64,000 nt of DNA, taken from positions 1,456 to 65,455 of the forward strand of contig CALRAJ010000003.1 in the NCBI GenBank assembly GCA_943350765.1, written 5' to 3'. This document shows positions 5,218 to 61,751 of this stretch, piece after piece. Below the pieces are notes generated by a model, which was given only the letters and a program-made list of their open reading frames with translations, did no database searches and was not told where the DNA came from. Position 1 is the stretch's first letter. Every line of letters starts with the position of its first letter. A program made the translations under genes and the position numbers. Origin of the DNA: Candidatus Tayloriibacteriota bacterium (GTDB lineage Bacteria > Patescibacteriota > Minisyncoccia > Phycocordibacterales > PALSA-1337).

Positions 5218-5293
5218 GCGGCTATAGCTCAGTCGGTAGAGCACCTGCCTTTTAAGCAGAGGGTCGTTGGTTCGATTCCAACTAGCCGCACCA
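5218..5293 (+). tRNA. tRNA-Lys (anticodon TTT), CCA encoded
   Basis: cloverleaf: acceptor GCGGCTA/TAGCCGC, D-arm AGCTCAGTCGGTAGAGC, anticodon loop CTTTTAA, T-arm GTTGGTTCGATTCCAAC. Confidence 0.9.
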
Positions 5294-5499
5294 ATTTAAA
5301 AATCTCCCAAATTCATTTGGGAGATTTTTAAATTGGTGCGGCTAGAGCAAGCCGACTGCTCGGCTTGCGTTTGGAATCGAACAGCGGAGCCATGTTTTTC
5401 TACCAAGAAAAACGGGCGAGCTGGTGCCCAGACTTTTCCGAGCGACGGCGAGGAAAAAGTCGCGGGCGATAAATGTACCCATGGTCCAACTAGCCGCAA
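5294..5499 (+). repeat. tRNA-linked composite element, type II core (follows tRNA-Lys)
   Basis: 42-nt palindromic hairpin; inverted copy TGGTGCGGCTAG-[CUGC-loop hairpin]-TTGGAATCGAAC of the tRNA-Lys 3' end; core ..GGTGCCCAGAC-hairpin-AGTCGCGGGCGATAAATGTACCCATGGTC; direct copy CCAACTAGCCGCA. Confidence 0.6.
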
Positions 5500-8436: not shown

Positions 8437-9003
8437 TTATTTTCCGAGCGATTTAAGAGCCGATTTTACACGGGCGCTAGTAGAGGTGATCTCTTTGGGT
8501 ACCTGCTTGAGTGCCTCGCGGGCTTCGTGAGGATTGTAGCCGAGGGATTTGAGGGCTTCGAGTGCATCTACCTCGTCCCTTAGGGTGATGTCAGTCTCGC
8601 CTTCATCGATAAACTTACCTCGAAGCTCGAGGACTATTTTGTCTGCTATTTTCCTACCGATACCTGAGACTTTGGTGAGGTGTGAAGTGTCGCCAGAGGA
8701 TACGGCTTTTCTGAGGGCGGGGAGGCTCGAGACATTGAGTACGCCGAGAGCGGTTTTCGGACCAATACCAGAAATAGATATGAGTAATTCAAAAAAGGAT
8801 AGCTCATCTTTGCCTTGGAAGCCGTAGAGTGTCATGGAGTCTTCGCGAACAGCTAGATGTGTCCAGAGCGAGATAGTTTTGTCTAAGGTAGAGCTTTCGA
8901 GTAGAGGGAGAGTGGTAAAGATTTTGTAGCCGACACCTTGGACATCGAGTACTAGGTACTTGTCGTCTTTGTGGATTACGGTACCCGTGAGGTAGGAGAT
9001 CAT
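8437..9003 (-). CDS. ruvA: Holliday junction DNA helicase RuvA
   Basis: MISYLTGTV..LVLDVQGVGYKI N-terminus; HhH and C-terminal domain III pattern. Confidence 0.9.
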   Translation of the reverse strand: MISYLTGTVIHKDDKYLVLDVQGVGYKIFTTLPLLESSTLDKTISLWTHLAVREDSMTLYGFQGKDELSFFELLISISGIGPKTALGVLNVSSLPALRKAVSSGDTSHLTKVSGIGRKIADKIVLELRGKFIDEGETDITLRDEVDALEALKSLGYNPHEAREALKQVPKEITSTSARVKSALKSLGK

Positions 9004-9083
9004 GCTGGGTACTATAGCATATTTTGGAGTTATATATAGAGCTGAGCTTGCCTAAATTTAAAATATGGTATAGTATTGTCCTC

Positions 9084-9356
9084 ATGCCAATAACCACATC
9101 TGCAAAGAAAGCCCTCAGAGGATCACAAAAGAAGCATGTTTTTAACATGCGTGCAAAGAAGTCGATTGACACTATTATGAAAAAGTTTAAGAAATTGGTG
9201 TCAGAAAAGAATGTAAAAGACGCCCTAGCTATTCTACCGTCACTTTACCAAGTACTCGATAAGGCTAGTAAGATAGGCTATATCAAGCCAAACAACGCTT
9301 CCCGCAACAAATCTCGGGTAGTGGCGATGTTAAAGAAGATAGAGGGGAAGGAGTAG
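9084..9356 (+). CDS. rpsT: 30S ribosomal protein S20
   Basis: MPITTSAKKALRGSQKKHVFNMRAKK.. basic helical protein; TAGTAT -10 element 7 nt before the ATG; terminator hairpin 9371-9402. Confidence 0.8.
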   Translation: MPITTSAKKALRGSQKKHVFNMRAKKSIDTIMKKFKKLVSEKNVKDALAILPSLYQVLDKASKIGYIKPNNASRNKSRVVAMLKKIEGKE

Positions 9357-9439
9357 TGGGAAATAAAGAAAACTGCCGACCAGAAGGTCGGCAGTTTTCT
9401 ATTTTGGTGCTCTTGGACAGACGCTTCGCTATCGAACTC

Positions 9440-9585
9440 CTGGGGAACCCCGTCTACAGGTGCACATCATCTACCGATGTGCCACGGTTCTCCCAATCCT
9501 TCCTCCACGGGAAAACGCCTGTTTTCCCGACCCCTTTCCTGTTCGATTCCTGCCAGGAACGCAACAAACAGCTACGCCTTTTTTG
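9440..9585 (-). repeat. tRNA-linked composite element, type I core (follows tRNA-Arg-GCG on minus strand)
   Basis: inverted T-arm copy GTTCGATTCCTGCCAGGA 9541-9558, then minus-strand core GGGTCGGGAAAACAGGCGTTTTCCCGTGGAGGAA..; degenerate direct copy of the tRNA 3' end near 9406-9420. Confidence 0.55.
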
Positions 9586-9657
9586 TGCTCCTGGCAGGAA
9601 TCGAACCTGCATTTCTCCCTTCGCAGGGGAGTGTCCTATCCGTTGAACGACAAGAGC
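9586..9657 (-). tRNA. tRNA-Arg (anticodon GCG, unusual for bacteria)
   Basis: minus-strand cloverleaf: acceptor GCTCTTG/CAGGAGC, anticodon stem CTCCC/GGGAG, loop CTGCGAA, T-arm GCAGGTTCGATTCCTGC. Confidence 0.75.
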
Positions 9658-9667
9658 GGTAGGTAAA

Positions 9668-9809
9668 CCCCAAATTATGGAATACCGTCGCGGGCGTATC
9701 TTTTTGAAAGACTTCGGAAGCGGGTAGCTGAGACTTGAGAGATTTCTTACCAAAGAAATACTCGTGCTTTCAAAAAGATACGCTAAGAAAGGTGTTTCGT
9801 AATTTGGGG
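9668..9809. mobile_element. MITE-like element family B copy with TAAA target-site duplication
   Basis: TIRs CCCCAAATTATGGAATACC / GGTGTTTCGTAATTTGGGG; TAAA on both flanks; internal hairpin GCGTATCTTTTTGAAAG..CTTTCAAAAAGATACGC enclosing the conserved core GCGGGTAGCTGAGACTTGAGAGATTTCT. Confidence 0.6.
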
Positions 9810-9882
9810 TAAAGAAATATTAGCCAAACTAAAATTATCTAAAACACTAGCAGGAAACGCGATTTACCTTATCACACAAACA

Positions 9883-10344
9883 CTAAAATCCCAAGTATTC
9901 CAAGAGTCTGTGGCTGAGTGGCTCAACATATTCCTCTTGGTGTAAATATTTGGAAAGATATTGCTCTACAATGTCTGGATTGATGTCGCCAAGGAGGATT
10001 GTGATGTGTGGAACCATGACGCGTTTTGAGTGTATATAAAGTCTTGGTTCGTGATGATTGGTTTCTACCCAAAACGACTCGAGTGAGCGATATGGATACA
10101 AGGTGTTGCCAGAAAGTATGCCTTTTTCATTTATTTCATATTTTACCTCTAGTGGTACACGATGTGCATAGAGCGAGAGGGTAAAGGTACCTAATAGTAT
10201 AAAAATTGCGAGTAGAACATTATTAAAAATAATCGCTACTCCAGCAAGTGAAATAGAAATAATCCCCACTGCCCAAAACCAGTCTACGGTTTTTACTTTG
10301 TGTGAATATTCCGGTGCAACCCATTGTATAGGGAGGTATGCCAT
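9883..10344 (-). CDS. hypothetical membrane protein
   Basis: 153 aa, two TM helices near the N-terminus, no recognisable motif. Confidence 0.4.
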   Translation of the reverse strand: MAYLPIQWVAPEYSHKVKTVDWFWAVGIISISLAGVAIIFNNVLLAIFILLGTFTLSLYAHRVPLEVKYEINEKGILSGNTLYPYRSLESFWVETNHHEPRLYIHSKRVMVPHITILLGDINPDIVEQYLSKYLHQEEYVEPLSHRLLEYLGF

Positions 10345-10565: not shown

Positions 10566-10860
10566 GCAGAGGAACGAAGTGAATAAGGAATGGGTGAGTT
10601 CGAACTGGAAGGGGGTCGGGGAAAATGGCGTTTCCCCGTGGAGGAAAACAACGAGTACTCGAGTGTTAGAAACCGTGGGTTTCTAAAACGCAGGCTACTG
10701 CCGAGCAGTGAGGTTCTCACCCCATCCGCCTTCGGTCCGCCGGAGCAGACCTACGGCGTGACGCAGTCCGCCAGTGGGTTTGCATAGGCGACCTTCGCCA
10801 TACTGAAGCATGGCTACGGCGTAAAAAAGTCCGCAGTAATTATGCGTCGACTTTCGCTAG
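10566..10860 (+). repeat. tRNA-linked composite element, type I core (follows tRNA-Ser)
   Basis: inverted T-arm copy GGAATGGGTGAGTTCGAAC 10586-10604; core GGGGGTCGGGGAAAATGGCGTTTCCCCGTGGAGGAAAACAACGAGTACTCGAGTGTTAGAAACCGTGGGTTTCTAAA; direct copy CTCACCCCATCCGCC 10716-10730; tail CCGCCTTCGGTCCGC..GCGTGACGCAGTCCGC also found at 60160-60240. Confidence 0.6.
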
Positions 10861-18383: not shown

Positions 18384-18588
18384 TACTGTATATGCTGGAA
18401 AAAGCTTTTCATTTGAAACCAATTCAATACCAGCGTCTCCTGTTCTAATAAATACAAAATCACTAACCGAAACCATAGAAAAGTATGAGCAAAAAAGACT
18501 AAAGTTTAATTTTTTGCAACAGAATGGGGTGAGGAGCTTTGACCCATCTCTGTAAGAGTGCTATAGTCCTCGATAAGTAATAATAAAT

Positions 18589-18663
18589 GCCCTCGTAGTT
18601 CAATGGATAGAACTGCGGACTTCTAAGCCGTCAATGTTGGTTCGATTCCAACCGAGGGCACCA
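18589..18663 (+). tRNA. tRNA-Arg (anticodon TCT), CCA encoded
   Basis: acceptor GCCCTCG/CGAGGGC, anticodon loop CTTCTAA (A31-G39 mismatch in stem), T-arm GTTGGTTCGATTCCAAC. Confidence 0.85.
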
Positions 18664-19027
18664 AATAAACCTGTAAGGGTTTTTTGTGCAACCTCGGTTG
18701 GAATCGAACCGGAAAGGGGTCGGGGAACGGGAGTTCCCCGTGGAGGAAAACAACGAGTACTCGAGTGTTAGAAACCGTGGGTTTCTAAAGAGCCCGACAC
18801 ACGGAGGGCGAGTGAGATAGCGAAGCGCCCAACCGAGGGCACAAAAAAATGCGGAGCACTTTTTGTGCCCTCGAGCAGGCAAACTGCTTTGCCTGCGGGT
18901 CGGAATCGAACAGCGGAGTCATGTTTTTATACCAAGAAAAACAGGCGAGCTGGTGCCCAGACCAAAGTTTTTGACGAAAAACTTTGAGTCGCGGGCGATA
19001 AATGTACTCATGGTCCAACCGAGGGTT
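18664..19027 (+). repeat. tRNA-linked composite elements: type I core then type II core in tandem (follow tRNA-Arg-TCT)
   Basis: inverted copy CAACCTCGGTTGGAATCGAACC 18689-18710; type I core 18715-18792; direct copy CCCAACCGAGGGCACA 18828-18843; inverted TGTGCCCTCG-[CUGC hairpin]-GGTCGGAATCGAAC 18863-18910; type II core ..GGTGCCCAGACC-hairpin-AGTCGCGGGCGATAAATGTACTCATGGTC; direct copy CAACCGAGGG 19015-19026. Confidence 0.6.
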
Positions 19028-27271: not shown

Positions 27272-27439
27272 TGGTGCGCGATGAGGGAATCTTTTTCCCT
27301 AGAGGACGGTCACCGTCGCTGAGCACTTTTTTGTTCGCGAGTACACTAAAAAAAGTGCTCAGCGAGGCTTCAAGTCCCTACGCAAAGCGTACCCACGCTT
27401 TGCTCATCACATACGAAAAAATCCCTTTCGGGATTGTTT
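27272..27439 (-). repeat. tRNA-linked composite element (follows tRNA-Val on minus strand; core is one long hairpin)
   Basis: inverted T-arm copy GAGGCTTCAAGTCCCTACGC; hairpin GCTGAGCACTTTTTT..AAAAAAAGTGCTCAGC; direct copy TGGTGCGCGATGAGGGA of the tRNA-Val 3' end at 27272-27288. Confidence 0.55.
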
Positions 27440-30292: not shown

Positions 30293-30366
30293 GGTGGCTA
30301 TAGTTTAGTGGTAAAACTCCGGTTTGTGGAACCGGTATCGAGAGTCCGATTCTCTCTAGCCACCCA
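30293..30366 (+). tRNA. tRNA-His (anticodon GTG) with encoded G-1
   Basis: G-1 paired to discriminator C; acceptor GTGGCTA/TAGCCAC; anticodon stem CCGGT/ACCGG, loop TTGTGGA; T-arm GAGAGTCCGATTCTCTC. Confidence 0.85.
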
Positions 30367-30408: not shown

Positions 30409-30537
30409 TGGCATGGTTAGAGAGAATCGGACGACGGAGCGGGGTACCCACATAACAATGTGGGTCGCGAGTCGGTGCCCAGACCGAGGCGAGTGGCGAC
30501 GAGCCTTGAGTCGCGGGAGATTCTCTCTAGCCACCCC
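30409..30537 (+). repeat. tRNA-linked composite element, type II core (follows tRNA-His)
   Basis: terminator hairpin GACAAACGCGGAGCGTTTGTC; inverted copy TGGCATGGTTAGAGAGAATCGGAC; GACGGAG; hairpin ACCCACATAACAATGTGGGT; GTCGGTGCCCAGACC; hairpin CGAGGCGAGTGGCGACGAGCCTTG; AGTCGCGGG; direct copy AGATTCTCTCTAGCCACCCC. Confidence 0.6.
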
Positions 30538-36270: not shown

Positions 36271-36871
36271 ATGCTTTCAAAAAAAACGCACAAGGTGTCC
36301 ATTATGTCAGTCATTGAATACAGTAAAAAATGGTAGTGGAGATCATGGCCAAAGATACAGATGTAATGATTGTAACAAGAGGTTTAGGTTGAAAGATTAC
36401 AAGAAAGAAAAAGAATCTGAATATATATGGAACGAATTTGTGTTTGCAAAGCAAACACTCAGAGAGTTGTCAGAAATATTTTCATACACTAAAAAACAAC
36501 TCCAAAGAATCTTTGATGGTATACAAATCACACAAAAGATTCACACCCCACGAGCACTACACCTCGTAGTTGATGCCACCTACTTTGGAATGAAGGAAAC
36601 TAGGCTTTGGGGAGTACTAGTTTTTCGAGATCAAACCAACAAAGAGAATCTATGGTGGCAATTCATAGATGAAGAAAGAATACACTACTACAGAGAAGGT
36701 AGAGACTACCTTCTCTCTCTGGGGTATACAATACTATCTGTCACCTGTGATGGATTCAGTGGCTTACCTGAGCTATTTTCACCCATTCCTGTACAGTTCT
36801 GTCACTTTCACCAAGCCCAGATCGTGAGAAGGTATACAACACTTAATCCGAGTTTTTTGCTCAGTTGCTGA
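36271..36871 (+). pseudogene. IS1-family transposase remnant (InsA-like zinc finger plus InsB-like DDE region), frameshifted at an A8 tract and C-terminally truncated
   Basis: with one A removed from the A8 tract (36279-36286) the ORF reads MLSKKRTRCPLCQSLNTVKNGSGDHGQRYRCNDCNKRF, matching the IS1 InsA CPxC..VRNG..QRYxCxxC finger; downstream VVDATYFG and TCDGFSGLP align with IS1 InsB D residues; the ORF stops where the third catalytic residue is expected, and the GC-rich segment begins there. Confidence 0.6.
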
Positions 36872-37545
36872 CTACCGTCAAACCTGGCCAGATGGATCAT
36901 AAACGGATGCAGGCTGCGATTAAGGACCCCCAGCTCACCGAGCGCATGTATGCGTTCGTTAATGGTTACGAGGTTGCGCCACTGCAGGTGGTTATCCCTC
37001 CAGTCGTGGAGCTGGCAACTTTTATCCCCCTCCACCTCTCGATCCCGCTCGCCACTCACAAGGCCCGCTCGATGTCGGAGCTTTTCCGCAATCGTGGCAA
37101 GGTCATCTTCTACTACCGCGATGGCGACCTCGACGGTTGGTTCACCGCGAACTCCCCACAGTGCCCAGCTGGCACCGCCTCCCTCGTCAAAACCCCCAGG
37201 GCAATGACGTTCCGGCAGATGGCGCAGTCGGCCACTGGACTCCAGTCTGAGTCCCTCGCCGACCTCTCCCGTGCCATTGTCACCAAAGGCCTCGACATCG
37301 TCCCCACCCAATGGGACGACGCTATCGGCGCCACTCAGAACGGCACGGATCTTCTCCTCGTCAACGGCTATGCCAACTTCGCTTTTACGAAGACAGACAA
37401 GAAGCTCAAAGATGAGAATCAACAGGTAGTCGTGCTCTGCGCCCGCCGCGACGACGACGGCCGGTGGGGCGCCGGCGTCTGCGGGCTCGACAACGACGAC
37501 GAGTGGAACGCCGACTACAGGCTTCTCCTCCGCAACTCGCCCTAG
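36865..37545 (+). CDS. DGR target (variable) protein; C-terminal 35 codons encoded by VR
   Basis: GC-rich (about 60%) ORF; its 3' 106 bp is the A-mutagenised homologue of the TR; C-terminus ..LCARRDDDGRWGAGVCGLDNDDEWNADYRLLLRNSP; start uncertain (TTG 36865 or ATG 36892). Confidence 0.7.
   Translation: MLTTVKPGQMDHKRMQAAIKDPQLTERMYAFVNGYEVAPLQVVIPPVVELATFIPLHLSIPLATHKARSMSELFRNRGKVIFYYRDGDLDGWFTANSPQCPAGTASLVKTPRAMTFRQMAQSATGLQSESLADLSRAIVTKGLDIVPTQWDDAIGATQNGTDLLLVNGYANFAFTKTDKKLKDENQQVVVLCARRDDDGRWGAGVCGLDNDDEWNADYRLLLRNSP
37433..37538 (+). repeat. DGR variable repeat (VR)
   Basis: 106-bp ungapped alignment to TR 37788-37893 with 16 mismatches, 14 at TR adenines (11 A>G, 1 A>C, 2 A>T); identical 3' IMH-like GGCTTCTCCTCCGCAACTC, then palindrome GCCCTAGGGC. 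Confidence 0.85.
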
Positions 37546-37571
37546 GGCACTTTTGCCCTTTGACACTTCTT

Positions 37572-37603
37572 CCCCCAGCACTACGGTGCTGGGGGATTTT
37601 TTT
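37572..37603 (+). terminator. rho-independent terminator after the DGR target gene
   Basis: CCCCCAGCACTACGGTGCTGGGGG hairpin plus T7. Confidence 0.65.
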
Positions 37604-37787
37604 ATAAAATTTGATATACTGCCATTTAGGATTTGCTGACATACTCGGCGTAAGCTTGGTATGGCGAGTCCTGCAACATTCAAAAAAGAAATAGTTGGTG
37701 CCTCACTCTGGTGAGAAAAAGTCTCAAAATACTATTCAGCCCCAAGAGAATTCAAAGGGTGTTGTAATAGATGGAGCGAGGTACAAA

Positions 37788-37893
37788 TGCTCTACGCCAA
37801 CCGCAACGACGACGGCCAGTGGAATGCGAACGTCAACAGGCTCGACAACGACAACGAGTGGAACGCCGACAACAGGCTTCTCCTCCGCAACTC
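37788..37893 (+). repeat. DGR template repeat (TR)
   Basis: AAC/AAT-rich in the VR reading frame (MLYANRNDDGQWNANVNRLDNDNEWNADNRLLLRN); followed by hairpin CTCCCGCTTACTGCGGGAG plus T-run. Confidence 0.85.
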
Positions 37894-37908
37894 TTGCTTT
37901 TCTCCCGC

Positions 37909-38253
37909 TTACTGCGGGAGTTTTTGTTCTATGGAATAGATCCAGCCATGAAGCATCTTTCCGGCAGCGACCAATTTTTCATTTAGTAAGATAAACTTCT
38001 TGTCCTCGAATATGTTCATCTCCCAGCCAACAGATAAGAAGAATTTGATCAGATCCAAGTGCTCCTGAGCAGCCTTTATTAGAAGTATTTTTTGTTCGCC
38101 ACTACAATAGGTGGCCTGGTAAATTGACCTCAATGCCTCGGTGAAATAATCTTCAATTTTTGAAGCAATGCCAAATCGTACTGGTTTCGGTAAATTTTCG
38201 CTGTATGTAAACCATAGAGAATATGTTTCTTTCAGGTGTTGTAGCACTGGCAA
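37909..38253 (-). CDS. avd: Avd-like accessory variability determinant (four-helix-bundle, 23S rRNA IVS protein family)
   Basis: 114 aa, TTG start; LPKPVRFGIASKIEDYF.. and LLIKAAQEHLDLIKFFLSVGW helices match the Avd/IVS four-helix-bundle pattern; minus strand, divergent from the RT. Confidence 0.65.
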   Translation of the reverse strand: MPVLQHLKETYSLWFTYSENLPKPVRFGIASKIEDYFTEALRSIYQATYCSGEQKILLIKAAQEHLDLIKFFLSVGWEMNIFEDKKFILLNEKLVAAGKMLHGWIYSIEQKLPQ

Positions 38254-38261
38254 AATCGTGC

Positions 38262-38271
38262 GGGGGGGGGG
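38262..38271. repeat. G10 homopolymeric tract in the avd/RT divergent intergenic spacer
   Basis: CGGGGGGGGGGT, 14 nt upstream of the RT ATG, 9 nt from the avd start. Confidence 0.8.
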
Positions 38272-38284
38272 TAGACTTTGTAGT

Positions 38285-39319
38285 ATGGCTCGGATTCAAC
38301 TGATTCATACCTATCAGCATATCATTTCTGTTGAAAATTTGCTTTCAGCGTTGAGAGAATTTACCAAGGGCAAAAAGCAGAAAAAAGATGTCCAACAATT
38401 CTCACTTCGTCTGATGGATAATATTTTGAAACTCCATCGAGATCTTGCGGATAGAACTTATGTACATGGAGATTATCACGCTTTCAATATTTCCGATCCA
38501 AAGCCACGCAATATTCACAAAGCACTGGTGCGAGACAGACTGGTACATCACGCTATATACAGAGTGTTGTGCCCCTTTTTTGACCGTACTTTCATCAGTG
38601 ATTCGTATTCGTGTCGTCTGTATAAAGGCACACATCGAGCACTGAATCGGTTTAGGGATTTTGGACAAAAAGTTTCAAAAAATAACACACGCACCTGTTG
38701 GGTTTTGAAATGTGATGTGAGGAAGTTTTTTGCTTCTATTGACCACGGCGTCTTGTTCGCTATTCTAGAGCAGTATATTCCAGATAAAGATATCCTATGG
38801 CTACTCACTCGAGTGATCGATAGTTTCCATTCTACCCGTTTTGGTGTCGGACTTCCTCTCGGCAATCTCACATCACAGCTTCTAGTGAATATTTATATGA
38901 ACGAGTTTGACCAGTATATGAAGCATCGGCTTAAGGCCAAACACTATATTCGATATGCTGACGATTTTGTTATTTTGAGTAATGATAAAAAACGGCTCGA
39001 AAATATTTTGATAGAAATTAGTGACTTTTTGCAAGTAAAGCTTCGCCTGAATCTTCATCCAGACAAAGTGTTCATAAAAACATTTGCATCAGGTGTAGAT
39101 TTCCTTGGCTGGGTACACTTTTCTGACCATAGGGTACTGAGGACTTCCACCAAGAAAAGAATGTTTAAACGATTGGCTGAGGGAGAGGTATCGGAGACGA
39201 CCATCCTTTCGTATTTAGGCATGCTGAGTCATGGTAATGGGATGGGGTTGCAAGAGATGATTACTGGGCTGTCAGGATTGAATTTGGCTGGCGGAGGTAT
39301 GAGTGATAGTAAAACTTAA
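38285..39319 (+). CDS. DGR reverse transcriptase
   Basis: RT motifs 1-2 PKPRNIHKALVRDRLVHHAIYRVL, A WVLKCDVRKFFASIDH, B' GLPLGNLTSQLLVNIYMNEFD (SQ in place of group II SP, the DGR hallmark), C YIRYADDFVIL, D LRLNLHPDK, E GVDFLGW; start taken at ATG 38285 (MARIQL) rather than the ORF-track start 38168. Confidence 0.85.
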   Translation: MARIQLIHTYQHIISVENLLSALREFTKGKKQKKDVQQFSLRLMDNILKLHRDLADRTYVHGDYHAFNISDPKPRNIHKALVRDRLVHHAIYRVLCPFFDRTFISDSYSCRLYKGTHRALNRFRDFGQKVSKNNTRTCWVLKCDVRKFFASIDHGVLFAILEQYIPDKDILWLLTRVIDSFHSTRFGVGLPLGNLTSQLLVNIYMNEFDQYMKHRLKAKHYIRYADDFVILSNDKKRLENILIEISDFLQVKLRLNLHPDKVFIKTFASGVDFLGWVHFSDHRVLRTSTKKRMFKRLAEGEVSETTILSYLGMLSHGNGMGLQEMITGLSGLNLAGGGMSDSKT

Positions 39320-51021: not shown

Positions 51022-51144
51022 CACGAAGTTCTTTATCGGCATATCTTTTAAATGGCACGAGTATTTTCTTGCTAGAAAATCTCTCAAGTCTCAGCTACCC
51101 GCTTCCGAAGTCCATTTAAAAGATACGCCTTCAACGAACTTCGT
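51022..51144 (+). mobile_element. MITE-like element family B copy in the nusG-rplK spacer
   Basis: about 28-bp imperfect TIRs CACGAAGTTCTTTATCGGCATATCTTTT / AAAAGATACGCCTTCAACGAACTTCGTG; core TCTTGCTAGAAAATCTCTCAAGTCTCAGCTACCC. Confidence 0.6.
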
Positions 51145-53071: not shown

Positions 53072-53192
53072 CCAAACTTCGTTGAAGGCGTATCTTTTAA
53101 ATGGACTTCGGAGGTGGGTAACCGAGACTTGAGAGATTTTCTACCAAGAAAATACTCGTGCCATTTAAAAGATGTGCCGAGAAAGAAGTTTG
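53072..53192 (-). mobile_element. MITE-like element family B copy (inverted orientation)
   Basis: TIRs CCAAACTTCGTTGAAGGCGTATCTTTT / AAAAGATGTGCCGAGAAAGAAGTTTGG; core is the reverse complement of the 51022-51144 copy. Confidence 0.6.
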
Positions 53193-59895: not shown

Positions 59896-59984
59896 GGAGA
59901 GATGGATGAGTGGCTTAAATCAACGGTTTACTAAACCGTCGTTCCCTAACAGGAACCGTGGGTTCGAATCCCACTCTCTCCGCA
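59896..59984 (+). tRNA. type II tRNA (Ser-like) with unusual anticodon loop TTACTAA (nominal anticodon ACT)
   Basis: acceptor GGAGAGA/TCTCTCC, 3-bp D-stem, anticodon stem ACGGT/ACCGT, long variable arm CGTTCCCTAACAGGAAC, T-arm GTGGGTTCGAATCCCAC. Confidence 0.65.
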
Positions 59985-60024: not shown

Positions 60025-60360
60025 GCGCGAGAGAGTGGGATTCGAACGCCGGAACTCATAATTTTCAGTAGAAAATTTAGTGAGGCGGTGCCCAGACAAA
60101 TTTTTTCGACGGAAAAAATTTAGTCGCGGGCGAAAAACGTACTCGTGGTCTCGCTCTCTCCGCCTTCGGTCCGCAGTAGCTTGGCTTCGGAGTGACACAG
60201 TCCGCAGAAGATGAGCGAAGGCGGGAAGGGGATTCGAAGCCAGATTGAGTATTTTTTCGATTTTGTAATCAAATGAAGAAAAAATCCAATCGGGGTACTG
60301 AAACTGTAAGTTTCGAAAAGCGTACTCGTGGTCTCGCTCTCTTTTCGATACTGCCATTGA
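60025..60360 (+). repeat. tRNA-linked composite element, type II core (follows the type II tRNA), with additional partial duplication
   Basis: terminator hairpin 59986-60024; inverted copy GCGCGAGAGAGTGGGATTCGAAC; hairpin CTCATAATTTTCAGTAGAAAATTTAGTGAG; GCGGTGCCCAGAC; hairpin AAATTTTTTCGACGGAAAAAATTT; AGTCGCGGGCGAAAAACGTACTCGTGGTC; direct copy TCGCTCTCTCCGCC; second direct copy at 60322-60350. Confidence 0.6.
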
Positions 60361-60923: not shown

Positions 60924-60940
60924 ACAATGAGGTCAGCCAC
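60924..60940 (+). repeat. 17-bp direct repeat ACAATGAGGTCAGCCAC, copy 1
   Basis: identical to 61572-61588; together they flank ORF 61016-61561. Confidence 0.7.
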
Positions 60941-61015
60941 CACTTGCCCGAACATATTATCAAAAATAATTATGGCTGACCTTATTATCATTATTACAGT
61001 TGATAAACTACTAAA

Positions 61016-61561
61016 ATGAAACCACAATTATTTATTATTACAGGGGTAAATGGTATTGGGAAAAGTTGTATTATTCCTAAACTGAGAGACCATCTCAATT
61101 CTATAAATTTTGTAGTACACGACTTCGATGAGCGCGGAGTTCCTGATAATGCTGATAGTGAGTGGCGAAAATCTGAGATAAAACATTGGTTTACAATTGC
61201 GGAGCAAAATATAAGTAAAAAATTGTCTACGGTTGTGTGTGGTTTTATGAAAATGAGCGATATCAAGCATGCTTTGGAAAATGGCTATAGTATAAAAGTA
61301 AGTGTCTGTGTGCTAGATGCCTCTCCAGAAACTATTTCTAGTAGAATCTTAAGTCGTTATCTCACTCCTGAAAGTCTTATAGAACTTAAGCGTACTACTG
61401 GTAAAACTCCCGAAAAGTTTGTGAGTGATAATGTATGGGTAGCCTCAAAATTCCGTGAAGAAGCAAAAGAAAATGCCTACTACCTACTTGATACAAATGA
61501 ACAAAGGCCAGATAAAGTCGCTACAAGCGTCATCGCATGGATTAATACACAAAATATATGA
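61016..61561 (+). CDS. P-loop kinase-like protein (AAA_33/zeta-toxin-like nucleotide kinase fold)
   Basis: Walker A ITGVNGIGKS near the N-terminus; 181 aa. Confidence 0.5.
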   Translation: MKPQLFIITGVNGIGKSCIIPKLRDHLNSINFVVHDFDERGVPDNADSEWRKSEIKHWFTIAEQNISKKLSTVVCGFMKMSDIKHALENGYSIKVSVCVLDASPETISSRILSRYLTPESLIELKRTTGKTPEKFVSDNVWVASKFREEAKENAYYLLDTNEQRPDKVATSVIAWINTQNI

Positions 61562-61571
61562 ATACAATGAT

Positions 61572-61588
61572 ACAATGAGGTCAGCCAC
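61572..61588 (+). repeat. 17-bp direct repeat ACAATGAGGTCAGCCAC, copy 2
   Basis: identical to 60924-60940. Confidence 0.7.
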
Positions 61589-61705
61589 AATTCTTTTTGA
61601 TAATATGTTCGGGGGAACGGTGGCTAACCTTACTAATTTTTCAGTAGAAAATTTAGTAAGGCGCTGCCCAGACCAAAGTTTTTGACGAAAAACTTTGAAT
61701 ATCGG
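61589..61705 (+). repeat. orphan type II composite element (no tRNA)
   Basis: inverted partial copy GGTGGCTAACC of the preceding GGTCAGCCAC; hairpin CTTACTAATTTTTCAGTAGAAAATTTAGTAAG; GCGCTGCCCAGACC; hairpin CAAAGTTTTTGACGAAAAACTTTG identical to that in 18965-18988. Confidence 0.55.
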
Positions 61706-61751
61706 GAGAAATTCTTACTCACTTATCCATAAATAGAATTAACGTAAACCT

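Follow-up and report, generated by a model that had tools for sequence, protein, structure and literature searches.

Structured units behind tRNA genes

We analysed a 64,000-nt stretch of the genome of a Candidatus Tayloriibacteriota bacterium (Patescibacteriota; assembly GCA_943350765.1, contig CALRAJ010000003.1, positions 1,456 to 65,455), hereafter the window, in which structured non-coding units follow tRNA genes. Eight tRNA genes were called with ARAGORN, and seven of them carry downstream both inverted and direct copies of their own 3' end, against none in the upstream control. The unit on which this work focuses (18863-19027) lies 200 nt 3' of the gene for tRNA-Arg(TCT), with another structured unit in between (Table 1), and the tRNA gene itself has a sigma70-like promoter at 18539-18567. 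We name the units after their cores, the focal one being type II and the others types I, III and V.

On the tRNA strand the units share one order, consisting of a spacer hairpin (Y), an inverted arm (X'), a core and a direct arm (X2). For the focal unit the template of both arms is X1, the last 24 nt of tRNA-Arg(TCT), from G53 to CCA. The T-arm part of its X' is the reverse complement, with one mismatch, of G53, the T-loop and the 3' strand of the T-stem. The hairpin inserted within X' (H) is identical at the tRNA-Arg-GCG of another locus (L090) and recurs in covarying versions in more than ten loci. In the focal X2, the segment CCAACCGAGGG corresponds to the T-stem 3' strand plus the acceptor 3' strand, and the spacer Y2 is conserved in a close relative (L140) as aaaaaatgcgaagcacttttt.

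The conserved core is readily traced through the window. Exact matches to GGTGCCCAGAC occur four times, all on the + strand (5423, 18952, 30474 and 60087), with a fifth site carrying one mismatch at 61663, and AGTCGCGGG lies 24 nt after GGTGCCCAGAC in all four intact copies. A covariance model (R1) built from 37 type II copies, with which the window was scanned with filters off, recovers these five sites and no further site above 15 bits in the 64 kb. Type II is a conserved fold of about 112 nt, of which the window holds four intact copies and one decayed copy, all on the + strand; the intact copies lie 40-200 nt 3' of + strand genes for tRNA-Lys, tRNA-Arg-TCT, tRNA-His and tRNA-Ser-ACT. The orphan resembles the Ser copy in hairpin 1 and is identical to the Arg copy in hairpin 2.

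These are exactly the five sites listed in a first-pass annotation of the window made from the letters alone, and the block order proposed there (inverted tRNA copy, RGCGGAG, hairpin 1, GGTGCCCAGAC, hairpin 2, AGTCGCGGG, direct tRNA copy) is correct, as is its description of the GACG loops of hairpin 2. The covariance model and the alignment statistics given below support its view of a repeated module with a conserved core and covarying hairpins; the specificity of the arms for the neighbouring tRNA and the insertion of a hairpin within the inverted copy are also borne out, and the CTGC-loop hairpins of the Lys and Arg copies do covary, differing at three compensatory pairs. A further block listed as shared, CGAWAAAYGTACYCRTGGTC, is present in the Lys, Arg and Ser copies and missing from the His copy and from most homologues elsewhere. 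The identity claimed between 18965-18988 and 61667-61690 has to be redrawn, the block shared by the Arg and orphan copies being 34 nt long (18954-18987 and 61665-61698). That reading missed that the inverted arm primarily complements the tRNA itself, that unrelated cores occupy the same frame, and that the units turn over between strains.

Two weak R1 matches, at 51040-51123 (minus strand, 15 bits) and 53093-53176 (+ strand, 14.5 bits), have E values of about 0.04 and no adjoining tRNA, and are probably unrelated hairpins. The tRNA-Ser gene at 59896-59983 has the anticodon ACT (A34), which is unusual for a bacterial tRNA-Ser.

Fold, covariation and folding strand

Single-sequence folds agree across all copies. 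The 5' part of the core comprises P2 (4 bp, C-N-N-C/G-N-N-G), an internal loop (GGAG/GAG), hairpin 1 and a GU linker; the 3' part comprises P3, (U)GCCC/GGGC(G), an A opposite GC, GAC/GUC with a bulged A, and hairpin 2. P2 is 99% paired in the alignment and covaries at three of its four pairs. Across the 37 aligned sequences, compensatory changes are found at 19 of the 26 predicted pairs. With the closing helix included, 88.7% of cells are paired, compared with 35-46% when the partners are slid, and the covariation score is 0.562 against at most 0.16 for controls; none of 500 shuffles matched the observed pairing and covariation values.

Non-canonical pairs are unevenly distributed. In the core, G.U outnumbers A.C by 26 to 9 (p = 0.006) and G.A outnumbers C.U by 30 to 7 (p = 0.0002), and in the closing helix G.U outnumbers A.C by 36 to 15, counts that come from related sequences and so do not represent independent events. 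Since these asymmetries all run in one direction, the folding strand is that of the tRNA. Judged by the aligned copies, the type II fold is under selection on the tRNA-sense strand. For the focal copy, the minimum free energy (MFE) is -66.5 kcal/mol on the + strand (z = -5.4) and -59.8 kcal/mol on the minus strand (z = -4.7).

Hairpin 2 takes two interchangeable forms across type II loci. One is a perfect A/T-rich stem with a GACG loop, some versions of which are identical between distant genomes; the other reads CGA-NNN-GAGYGACGRCGAG-NNN-GAG and contains two tandem G.A motifs. The orthologous units behind the tRNA-His of the window and of a relative (L224) carry different forms.

Table 1. Positions of the tRNA genes, units and unit parts in the window
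Feature	Position	Strand	Evidence and remarks
tRNA-Arg(TCT)	18589-18663	+	ARAGORN; Rfam tRNA 65.4 bits
Type I unit between tRNA-Arg(TCT) and the focal unit; core GGAARGGGGTCGGG...CCCGTGGAGGAA...	18664-18842	+	sequence reading; no Rfam match
Type I spacer	18664-18685	+
Type I inverted arm	18686-18709	+
Type I core, unrelated to type II	18710-18827	+
Type I direct arm	18828-18842	+
Focal unit: spacer hairpin Y2 (A7-TGCGGAGCAC-T5), linking X' to the copy of the tRNA end before it	18843-18864	+
Focal unit: X', acceptor part, GTGCCCTCG (reverse complement of CGAGGGCAC)	18865-18873	+
Focal unit: hairpin H, 9-bp stem, CTGC loop, at the acceptor/T-stem boundary of X'	18874-18896	+	in MFE structure
Focal unit: X', T-arm part, GGGTCGGAATCGAAC	18897-18911	+	sequence reading
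Focal unit: core domain 1, P2 (CAGC/GCUG), internal loop GGAG/GAG, hairpin 1	18911-18952	+	Alifold, pair counts
Focal unit: core domain 2	18952-18995	+	R1 97.8 bits for the copy (18898-19010)
Invariant GGTGCCCAGAC	18952-18962	+
Hairpin 2 (GACG loop)	18963-18986	+
Invariant AGTCGCGGG	18987-18995	+
Focal unit: X2, CGAT (T-loop), mini-hairpin insert, CCAACCGAGGG	18996-19025	+
15-nt mini-hairpin insert in X2	19000-19014	+
Type II copy, tRNA-Lys (5218-5293)	5336-5499	+	R1 101 bits (5369-5481)
Type II copy, tRNA-His (30294-30365)	30409-30537	+	R1 98.9 bits (30419-30532); without H hairpin and mini-hairpin
Type II copy, tRNA-Ser(ACT) (59896-59983)	60025-60165	+	R1 106 bits (60034-60145)
Decayed orphan type II copy, no adjoining tRNA	61589-61721	+	R1 40.6 bits (61615-61721)
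Type I unit, tRNA-Arg-GCG	9404-9584	minus	no Rfam match
Type I unit, tRNA-Ser-TGA	10568-10730		no Rfam match
Type III unit, tRNA-Val, GAAG-CCTCGCTGAG...CAGCGACGG...	27272-27439	minus
Type V unit, 3' of the type II unit behind tRNA-Ser-ACT	60166-60345

The arms copy the neighbouring tRNA

The inverted arm ends ...TCGAAC, the reverse complement of G53, the T-loop and the T-stem 3' strand. It occurs in a short form of about 10 nt, which is nearly generic, and in a long form that takes in the acceptor strand as well and in most cases carries H where T-stem and acceptor meet. It is preceded by a complement of the tRNA trailer, so that tRNA end, spacer and X' form one long hairpin. The direct arm is a tRNA copy of up to 22 nt, usually running from C56 of the T-loop through the discriminator plus 0-8 nt of trailer. 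At positions where the tRNA and X2 differ, X' complements the tRNA at 69 and X2 at 3, and it follows even unusual tRNA T-loops such as GUCCGAUUC. X2 is degenerate in about 10 of 33 loci, in which the core is intact.

Two loci add detail to this pattern. In L229 the two arms match each other and not the adjoining tRNA, which indicates that arms travel with the unit. In the Arg-GCG unit of the window, X2 matches the tRNA allele of the relatives and X' matches the window's own tRNA.

Two simple sources of X' were considered and rejected. It is not a cDNA of the mature tRNA, because behind tRNA genes that lack CCA it copies the genomic trailer and not CCA. Nor can the tRNA 5' half have been duplicated directly to give X', which is the reverse complement of T-loops that are not palindromic and has an A pairing with U64 at a position where G stands in the tRNA. 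An enrichment of GCGAAGC/GCGGAGC mini-hairpins in the spacers, which might have hinted at a DNA hairpin, amounts to 2 and 4 occurrences against about 0.2 expected; it is weak and was not used.

One frame, several cores

The frame of inverted and direct tRNA copies is not tied to one core. Besides type II, the window contains type I units behind the genes for tRNA-Arg-GCG, tRNA-Ser-TGA and tRNA-Arg-TCT, with the core GGAARGGGGTCGGG...CCCGTGGAGGAA..., a type III unit behind tRNA-Val and a type V unit behind tRNA-Ser-ACT; the cores of all three types are unrelated to that of type II. One frame serves these different cores, and a direct repeat brackets the inserted unit. The type I direct arm contains a GCGAAGC mini-hairpin within its T-loop copy. 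The type I units behind tRNA-Ser-TGA and tRNA-Arg-TCT share a 54-nt identical core block and have arms that are entirely specific to their tRNA; in two loci of one metagenome-assembled genome (L084 and L100), hairpin 1 of type II is likewise shared and the arms are again tRNA-specific. The type III core is also found behind tRNA-Arg-TCT and tRNA-Val in L140. Type V shares the block GTACTCGTGGTC with the type II variant of the window, and its core also lies behind tRNA-Ser-TGA in L227. In unbiased Patescibacteria loci the frame follows only 4-5 of 38 tRNAs, compared with seven of eight in the window, a patchiness consistent with cassette behaviour.

Just 5' of tRNA-Arg-GCG, a strongly palindromic element of about 150 nt (9660-9810) is closed by ACCCCAAATTA/TAATTTGGGGT and contains CCGTCGCGGGCG and ACTCGTG, which recall the type II core; R1 matches it weakly (9697-9784, 10.9 bits).

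Distribution across Patescibacteria

One genome per species was scanned with the pattern GTGCCCAGAC-N(16-40)-AGTCGCGG. The scan returned about 45 true type II sites, exclusively in Patescibacteria (Wolfe-, Taylor-, Nomura- and Woesebacteria, Paceibacterota, Parcubacteria, Minisyncoccia and metagenome-assembled genomes labelled Saccharibacteria); in other phyla it yielded no true site, and what remained were fortuitous matches within coding sequence of high-GC organisms. With R1, diverged copies and tandem triples were also found, as was a variant whose P3 differs in sequence but whose architecture is the same. Outside the window there are about 50 copies, all of them in Patescibacteria genomes. 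Among the IMG/VR viral contigs, patterns for the type I, II and III cores gave only chance matches in high-GC coding DNA.

The association with tRNA genes is almost complete. The type II core lies 73-310 nt 3' of a tRNA on the same strand in about 33 of the 35 loci with upstream sequence, and a same-strand tRNA also precedes every type II match in the unbiased loci. The preceding tRNAs cover at least 11 amino-acid specificities, and tandem arrays reach three units.

Rfam 15, searched under both gathering and permissive thresholds with the regions of types I, II and III, returned only the tRNAs and spurious miRNA-like matches on long palindromes, and no self-cleaving ribozyme or group I or group II intron. 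With the tRNA model (RF00005 and its clan) the eight true tRNAs score and the module has no match on either strand even at E<=10; it has none to Y-RNA-like families either. The strands of the core junction (GAA, GU, CGA) are incompatible with a hammerhead core. A literature search, in which the conserved sequence strings were included, found no paper describing such units.

Turnover between relatives and strains

Orthologous loci show that near-identical strains differ in the units behind one and the same tRNA, which have been gained, replaced, stacked or truncated. The three strains L226, L227 and L228 are 99.87-100% identical over RuvA and Fpg. Behind tRNA-Ser-TGA, L226 and L228 carry a type II unit with a 3' type I remnant and L227 a type V unit, the sequences diverging from precisely the tRNA end onward. 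The tRNA-Lys of these strains is followed by type I with a 3' type II remnant, where the window has an intact type II, and the block of tRNA-Lys and unit is inverted in two of the three. At tRNA-Arg-GCG all three show a plain terminator, that is, an empty site, where the window has type I and L229 type II. Units are thus seen to be truncated by their neighbours, with a 3' remnant of one type left beyond an intact unit of another.

In L140, whose neighbouring MYG1 protein is 89% identical to that of the window, the tRNA-Arg-TCT gene lacks CCA and leads straight into spacer Y2 and then a type III unit. The window gene has CCA and its own spacer, with type I inserted ahead of the Y2 common to both loci and type II in the place of type III. 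L140 also has an extra unit behind tRNA-Val. The tRNA-His unit is kept at the orthologous position in L224, where the flanking protein has 60% amino-acid identity. Four assemblies of the window organism are 99.98-100% identical over the fetched loci; their tRNA-His intergenic regions are identical and therefore uninformative on strain variation there.

Neighbouring genes and other elements

The genes near the units are ordinary (SpoU methylase, Fpg, RuvA, MYG1 and others). Among the open reading frames (ORFs) around 41 loci no protein family recurs, any cluster being present at 5 of the 41 at most, and no recombinase, transposase or integrase is linked to the units in the window or recurrent around the 41 loci; in the same material no IntI-like gene was found near the arrays. 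A Pfam/NCBIfam sweep of the window returned housekeeping genes, a reverse transcriptase of the diversity-generating retroelement (DGR) type and an IS256-like fragment, neither of which adjoins a unit, and no Y1_Tnp or RAYT-like gene was found there. The DGR (36865-39319) has its variable repeat (VR, 37424-37538) at the end of an ORF (36865-37545), a template repeat (TR, 37779-37893) 83% identical to VR, and the reverse transcriptase gene at 38168-39319; the IS256-like transposase fragment lies at 36314-36871, and the DGR region has raised GC content and a reversed GC skew.

Three further arrangements were recorded. In L229, a Y1_Tnp (RAYT or IS200-like) gene at 8780-9987 has REP-like hairpins (AACGGTTCCTGACACCGTT) on both sides that are unrelated to the units; it lies 1.3 kb from a tRNA-Lys with two type II-like units and has distant homologues in five other Patescibacteria loci. 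In L059 (1224-4316), two tRNA-Leu units with different cores and near-identical H stand 2.8 kb apart, and the stretch between them holds an ORF that by eye resembles an IS30-family transposase (GHWEGDL motif) and two ORFs that by eye look secreted or membrane-bound. In the window, copies of a hairpin of about 60 nt (stem GAGGTCAGCCAC/GTGGCTGACCT) at 60925-60990 and 61565-61630 flank an ORF for 181 aa (61016-61561); the loop segment is inverted between the copies, and the second copy abuts the orphan type II core.

Interpretation

Type II is one member of a Patescibacteria-wide class of small, protein-less structured cassettes in tRNA 3' flanks. As to what the class does, the reading we put first, and hold only tentatively, sees the units as non-coding cassettes, mobile or replaceable, that use the 3' ends of tRNA genes as sites of recombination. 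Recombination would take place within the segment of the tRNA gene from the T-loop to the 3' end; the direct repeat would represent duplication of an attachment site, with the incoming unit supplying or preserving an intact tRNA end. The substrate recognised may be a single-stranded fold, either the long hairpin X1-Y-X' or the helix X'-X2, together with the core, by analogy with integron attC and CTX-phage attP sites, and the folded arms would copy the double-stranded target site. The enzyme for recombination would act in trans. The units are probably also transcribed passively, as tRNA read-through.

Known mobile systems offer partial parallels for such cassettes. Integrative elements at tRNA genes, with a class that crosses over at the T-loop, were reportedly described by Williams in Nucleic Acids Research in 2002, and their integrase-less derivatives, the cis-mobilizable elements (CIMEs), are known in streptococci. 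Like the cassettes, they use the 3' part of a tRNA gene from the T-loop to just past the gene, are flanked by a direct repeat on both sides, leave the tRNA intact, accrete in tandem and are present or absent between strains. Of the defining traits of this class we found the direct tRNA 3' repeat and the alternation of occupied and empty sites in relatives, but not the integrase, either in cis or nearby. The cassettes moreover measure only about 130-200 bp, encode no protein, carry a covarying single-strand fold and an inverted copy of the same tRNA segment, and place one core family at tRNAs of at least 11 kinds.

The attC and attP(+) sites share with the cassettes a conserved structure with free stem sequence, strand-specific features, bulged bases, two inverted copies that fold into a duplex mimicking a double-stranded target, and stacking beside a fixed site, the extra unit that distinguishes the window from L140 being the one nearest that site. 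The cassettes differ from both in targeting a tRNA gene end, in their three-way junction with invariant nucleotides, in containing no ORF and in showing no link to IntI or Xer. When their ends are compared with those of attC (inverse core RYYYAAC, core GTTRRRY), the left end, ...TTCGAAC, resembles the inverse core, and the right end, GCGGG-CGAA, has no GTT. Repetitive extragenic palindromes (REPs) and REPINs, which are moved in trans by a single-copy enzyme (RAYT, IS200-like Y1), are likewise short, ORF-less, hairpin-forming, multi-copy, intergenic and foldable on one strand, but have neither target-specific arms nor a tRNA association, and the only RAYT-like gene seen, that of L229, is flanked by other hairpins. 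Guide RNAs (the IS110 bridge RNA, the TnpB omega RNA and the homing crRNA of type V-K CRISPR-associated transposons) also set a scaffold beside a target-matching segment, and homing by the latter transposons also targets tRNA genes; in the cassettes, however, no effector gene adjoins the unit (41 loci), and the two arms, which pair with each other, match one and the same target segment in place of adjacent half-sites.

Several observations weigh against recombining cassettes, a reading whose weakest points are the missing enzyme, the missing excised form and the matching of the arms. No recombinase, transposase or integrase is linked to them in the window or the 41 loci, no excised form or circle junction was seen, and the type I, II and III cores are absent from the viral contigs scanned. 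The turnover could also result from foreign DNA that is taken up and exchanged by ordinary homologous recombination at a hot spot, the unit itself not being mobile. Near-identical cores occur at different tRNAs with fully tRNA-specific arms, and the cassette reading leaves this matching of the arms unexplained. A maintained RNA function fits at least as well with the fact that X' tracks the tRNA and not X2 (69 against 3), with the retention of the tRNA-His unit at 60% amino-acid identity, and with the compensatory differences between copies of one genome; and a three-way junction that contains tandem G.A motifs is more reminiscent of RNA than of a site where DNA recombines.

The main rival, which we regard as possible if somewhat unlikely, is framed in terms of RNA: a cis-acting device in the tRNA transcript, of the four-strand attenuator type. 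Its strands would be the 5' half of the tRNA (1), its own 3' third, X1 (2), X' (3) and X2 (4). In one state, pairing of 1 with 2 and 3 with 4 would give a normal tRNA and a closed three-way junction; in the other, pairing of 2 with 3 and 1 with 4 would sequester the tRNA's own 3' strand and substitute the distal copy. The core would act as a sensor or protein-binding domain controlling maturation, quality control or decay of that tRNA. Such a device accounts at once, and most economically, for all sequence relations of the arms, namely the complementarity of X' to the tRNA including G53-U55 and the trailer, the identity of X2 with X1 and the junction closed by X' and X2, and it fits an X' that tracks the tRNA through odd T-loops. 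The swapped fold is what MFE prediction returns for co-transcripts of tRNA and unit, in which the tRNA 3' third pairs with X' in 27 of 28 loci and the 5' acceptor strand with X2 in 21 of 28, with a mean gain of 12 kcal/mol over separate folds; these values reflect thermodynamics only and ignore folding order, tertiary structure and modifications. Co-orientation of the units with the tRNA, a good promoter-like site 5' of the tRNA and none found for the unit itself on either strand, different cores in one frame that recall different aptamers on one expression platform, and the retention of the tRNA-His unit in a distant relative all agree with it.

Other features sit poorly with a device of this kind. 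X2 is degenerate in the loci noted above despite an intact core, short-arm units have an X' of merely about 10 nt, terminator-like hairpins often stand between tRNA and unit, and the tRNA would fold before X' is made, in a competition from which the prediction omits tertiary structure and modifications. Most Patescibacteria tRNAs lack a unit, and near-identical strains carry different cores or none, which would be unusual for an essential regulator. Measured against riboswitches and attenuators, the units have a covarying structured domain, and their mutually exclusive pairings are predicted. They resemble attenuators, riboswitch platforms and T-box leaders in having four strands with exclusive pairings and a junction closed by a switching helix, and T-box leaders also in that each copy is tuned to one tRNA, but they lie 3' of the RNA that they would control, the product is a tRNA and not an mRNA, and strain turnover is high. 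The cassette and RNA-device explanations are not mutually exclusive.

A bolder proposal, which we consider unlikely, is that the cassettes form a self-retargeting, protein-less genetic system whose arms serve as a programmable address for the 3' third of a tRNA. It may take the form of integration guided by RNA or single-stranded DNA, with an arm pair that mimics or pairs with the tRNA gene end and is rebuilt for each target; or it may be a new class of cis-acting RNA switch for individual tRNAs, in which the 3' strand of the tRNA is swapped for a decoy copy under several interchangeable sensor cores. Whichever reading is right, four features come together here, namely a protein-less unit, a conserved covarying core, inverted and direct copies of the 3' third of the neighbouring tRNA, and interchangeable cores, a combination that no Rfam family, paper found or known element class displays.

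It is quite improbable that the units are free-standing stable non-coding RNAs of the + strand, with a tRNA-like closing helix (acceptor stem, H in the role of tRNA body, T-stem), excised from read-through transcripts by RNase P, RNase Z and the CCA-adding enzyme and carrying a core that serves an unrelated function with a protein partner. On the + strand H does lie between the acceptor 5' strand and the T-stem 5' strand, exactly where the tRNA body would be; X2 has the discriminator, and also CCA behind tRNA genes that encode CCA; contacts with a protein or within a tertiary structure are suggested by the tandem G.A motifs and by invariant nucleotides that stay unpaired; and terminators often lie 3' of X2. 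Yet such an RNA would not need a helix that matches the neighbouring tRNA, or an X' that follows the tRNA over X2. The acceptor complement is absent from many units, there is no T-loop elbow, since the helix runs through the T-loop nucleotides, and no conserved partner protein is encoded near the 41 loci. The tRNA 3' external transcribed spacer RNA 3'ETS-leuZ and the tRNA-like signals mascRNA and YrlA share the tRNA 3' trailer site and a closing helix like that of the acceptor and T-stem, but they do not copy the neighbouring tRNA in both orientations and are not multi-copy exchangeable cassettes.

We give little credence to a T-arm intron, in which the segment from C56 through the G before X2 would be cut out of the read-through, either through self-cleavage and ligation or with the help of host enzymes, so that U55 is joined to the distal copy, or to its variant in which X2 is released as a spare 3' fragment for a damaged tRNA. 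In the predicted ground state X2 indeed closes a cloverleaf from whose T-arm the whole unit loops out, most copies would have U as the last nucleotide of the upstream exon and G as that of the insert (GCGGG-CGAAUC), and Patescibacteria are rich in tRNA introns (PMC13011429); the group I introns treated in that paper are confined to the anticodon loop. The Rfam searches described above, permissive thresholds included, however matched no group I or II intron or self-cleaving ribozyme, and a group I fold would not fit into a core of about 100 nt. The junction also varies, many copies reading GGGA-GAAUC and type I beginning near position 60, the upstream tRNA is already complete, and X2 is often decayed.

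Least credible of all, and highly improbable in our estimate, is the minus-strand tRNA-like RNA of the first-pass annotation (5' acceptor strand, structured region, T-arm and an acceptor terminus with CCA): the focal copy folds well on that strand and the Lys copy ends there in ...CTAGCCGCACCA followed by a bidirectional terminator, but the reading is disfavoured by the G.U and G.A asymmetry, by promoter placement, with no promoter-like site found facing that strand, and by the position of H, which would break the continuous 3' strand of the mimic, and further by the more stable + strand fold, by an X' that, behind genes lacking CCA, reproduces the genomic trailer in its stead, and by the many homologues that lack the acceptor complement and therefore have no minus-strand acceptor stem. 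We know of no tRNA with a 3' strand interrupted in that way.

Significance

Patescibacteria genomes are among the smallest and most streamlined in bacteria, and to our knowledge almost no non-coding RNAs have been characterised in them; the window nonetheless spends 130-350 nt behind seven of its eight tRNA genes on structured non-coding units that vary between near-identical strains. If the units are mobile, they would constitute a new kind of gene-less element with target-specific arms that docks at tRNA ends, and would point to a recombination activity behind them. If their action is at the RNA level, they would be the first devices located 3' of a tRNA for which remodelling of that tRNA by strand exchange is predicted. 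Either way, they provide a practical marker of strain-level variation and caution against annotating partial tRNA copies in these genomes as simple scars of prophages, and they give the phylum at least one well-supported new structured family, type II, together with several candidates.

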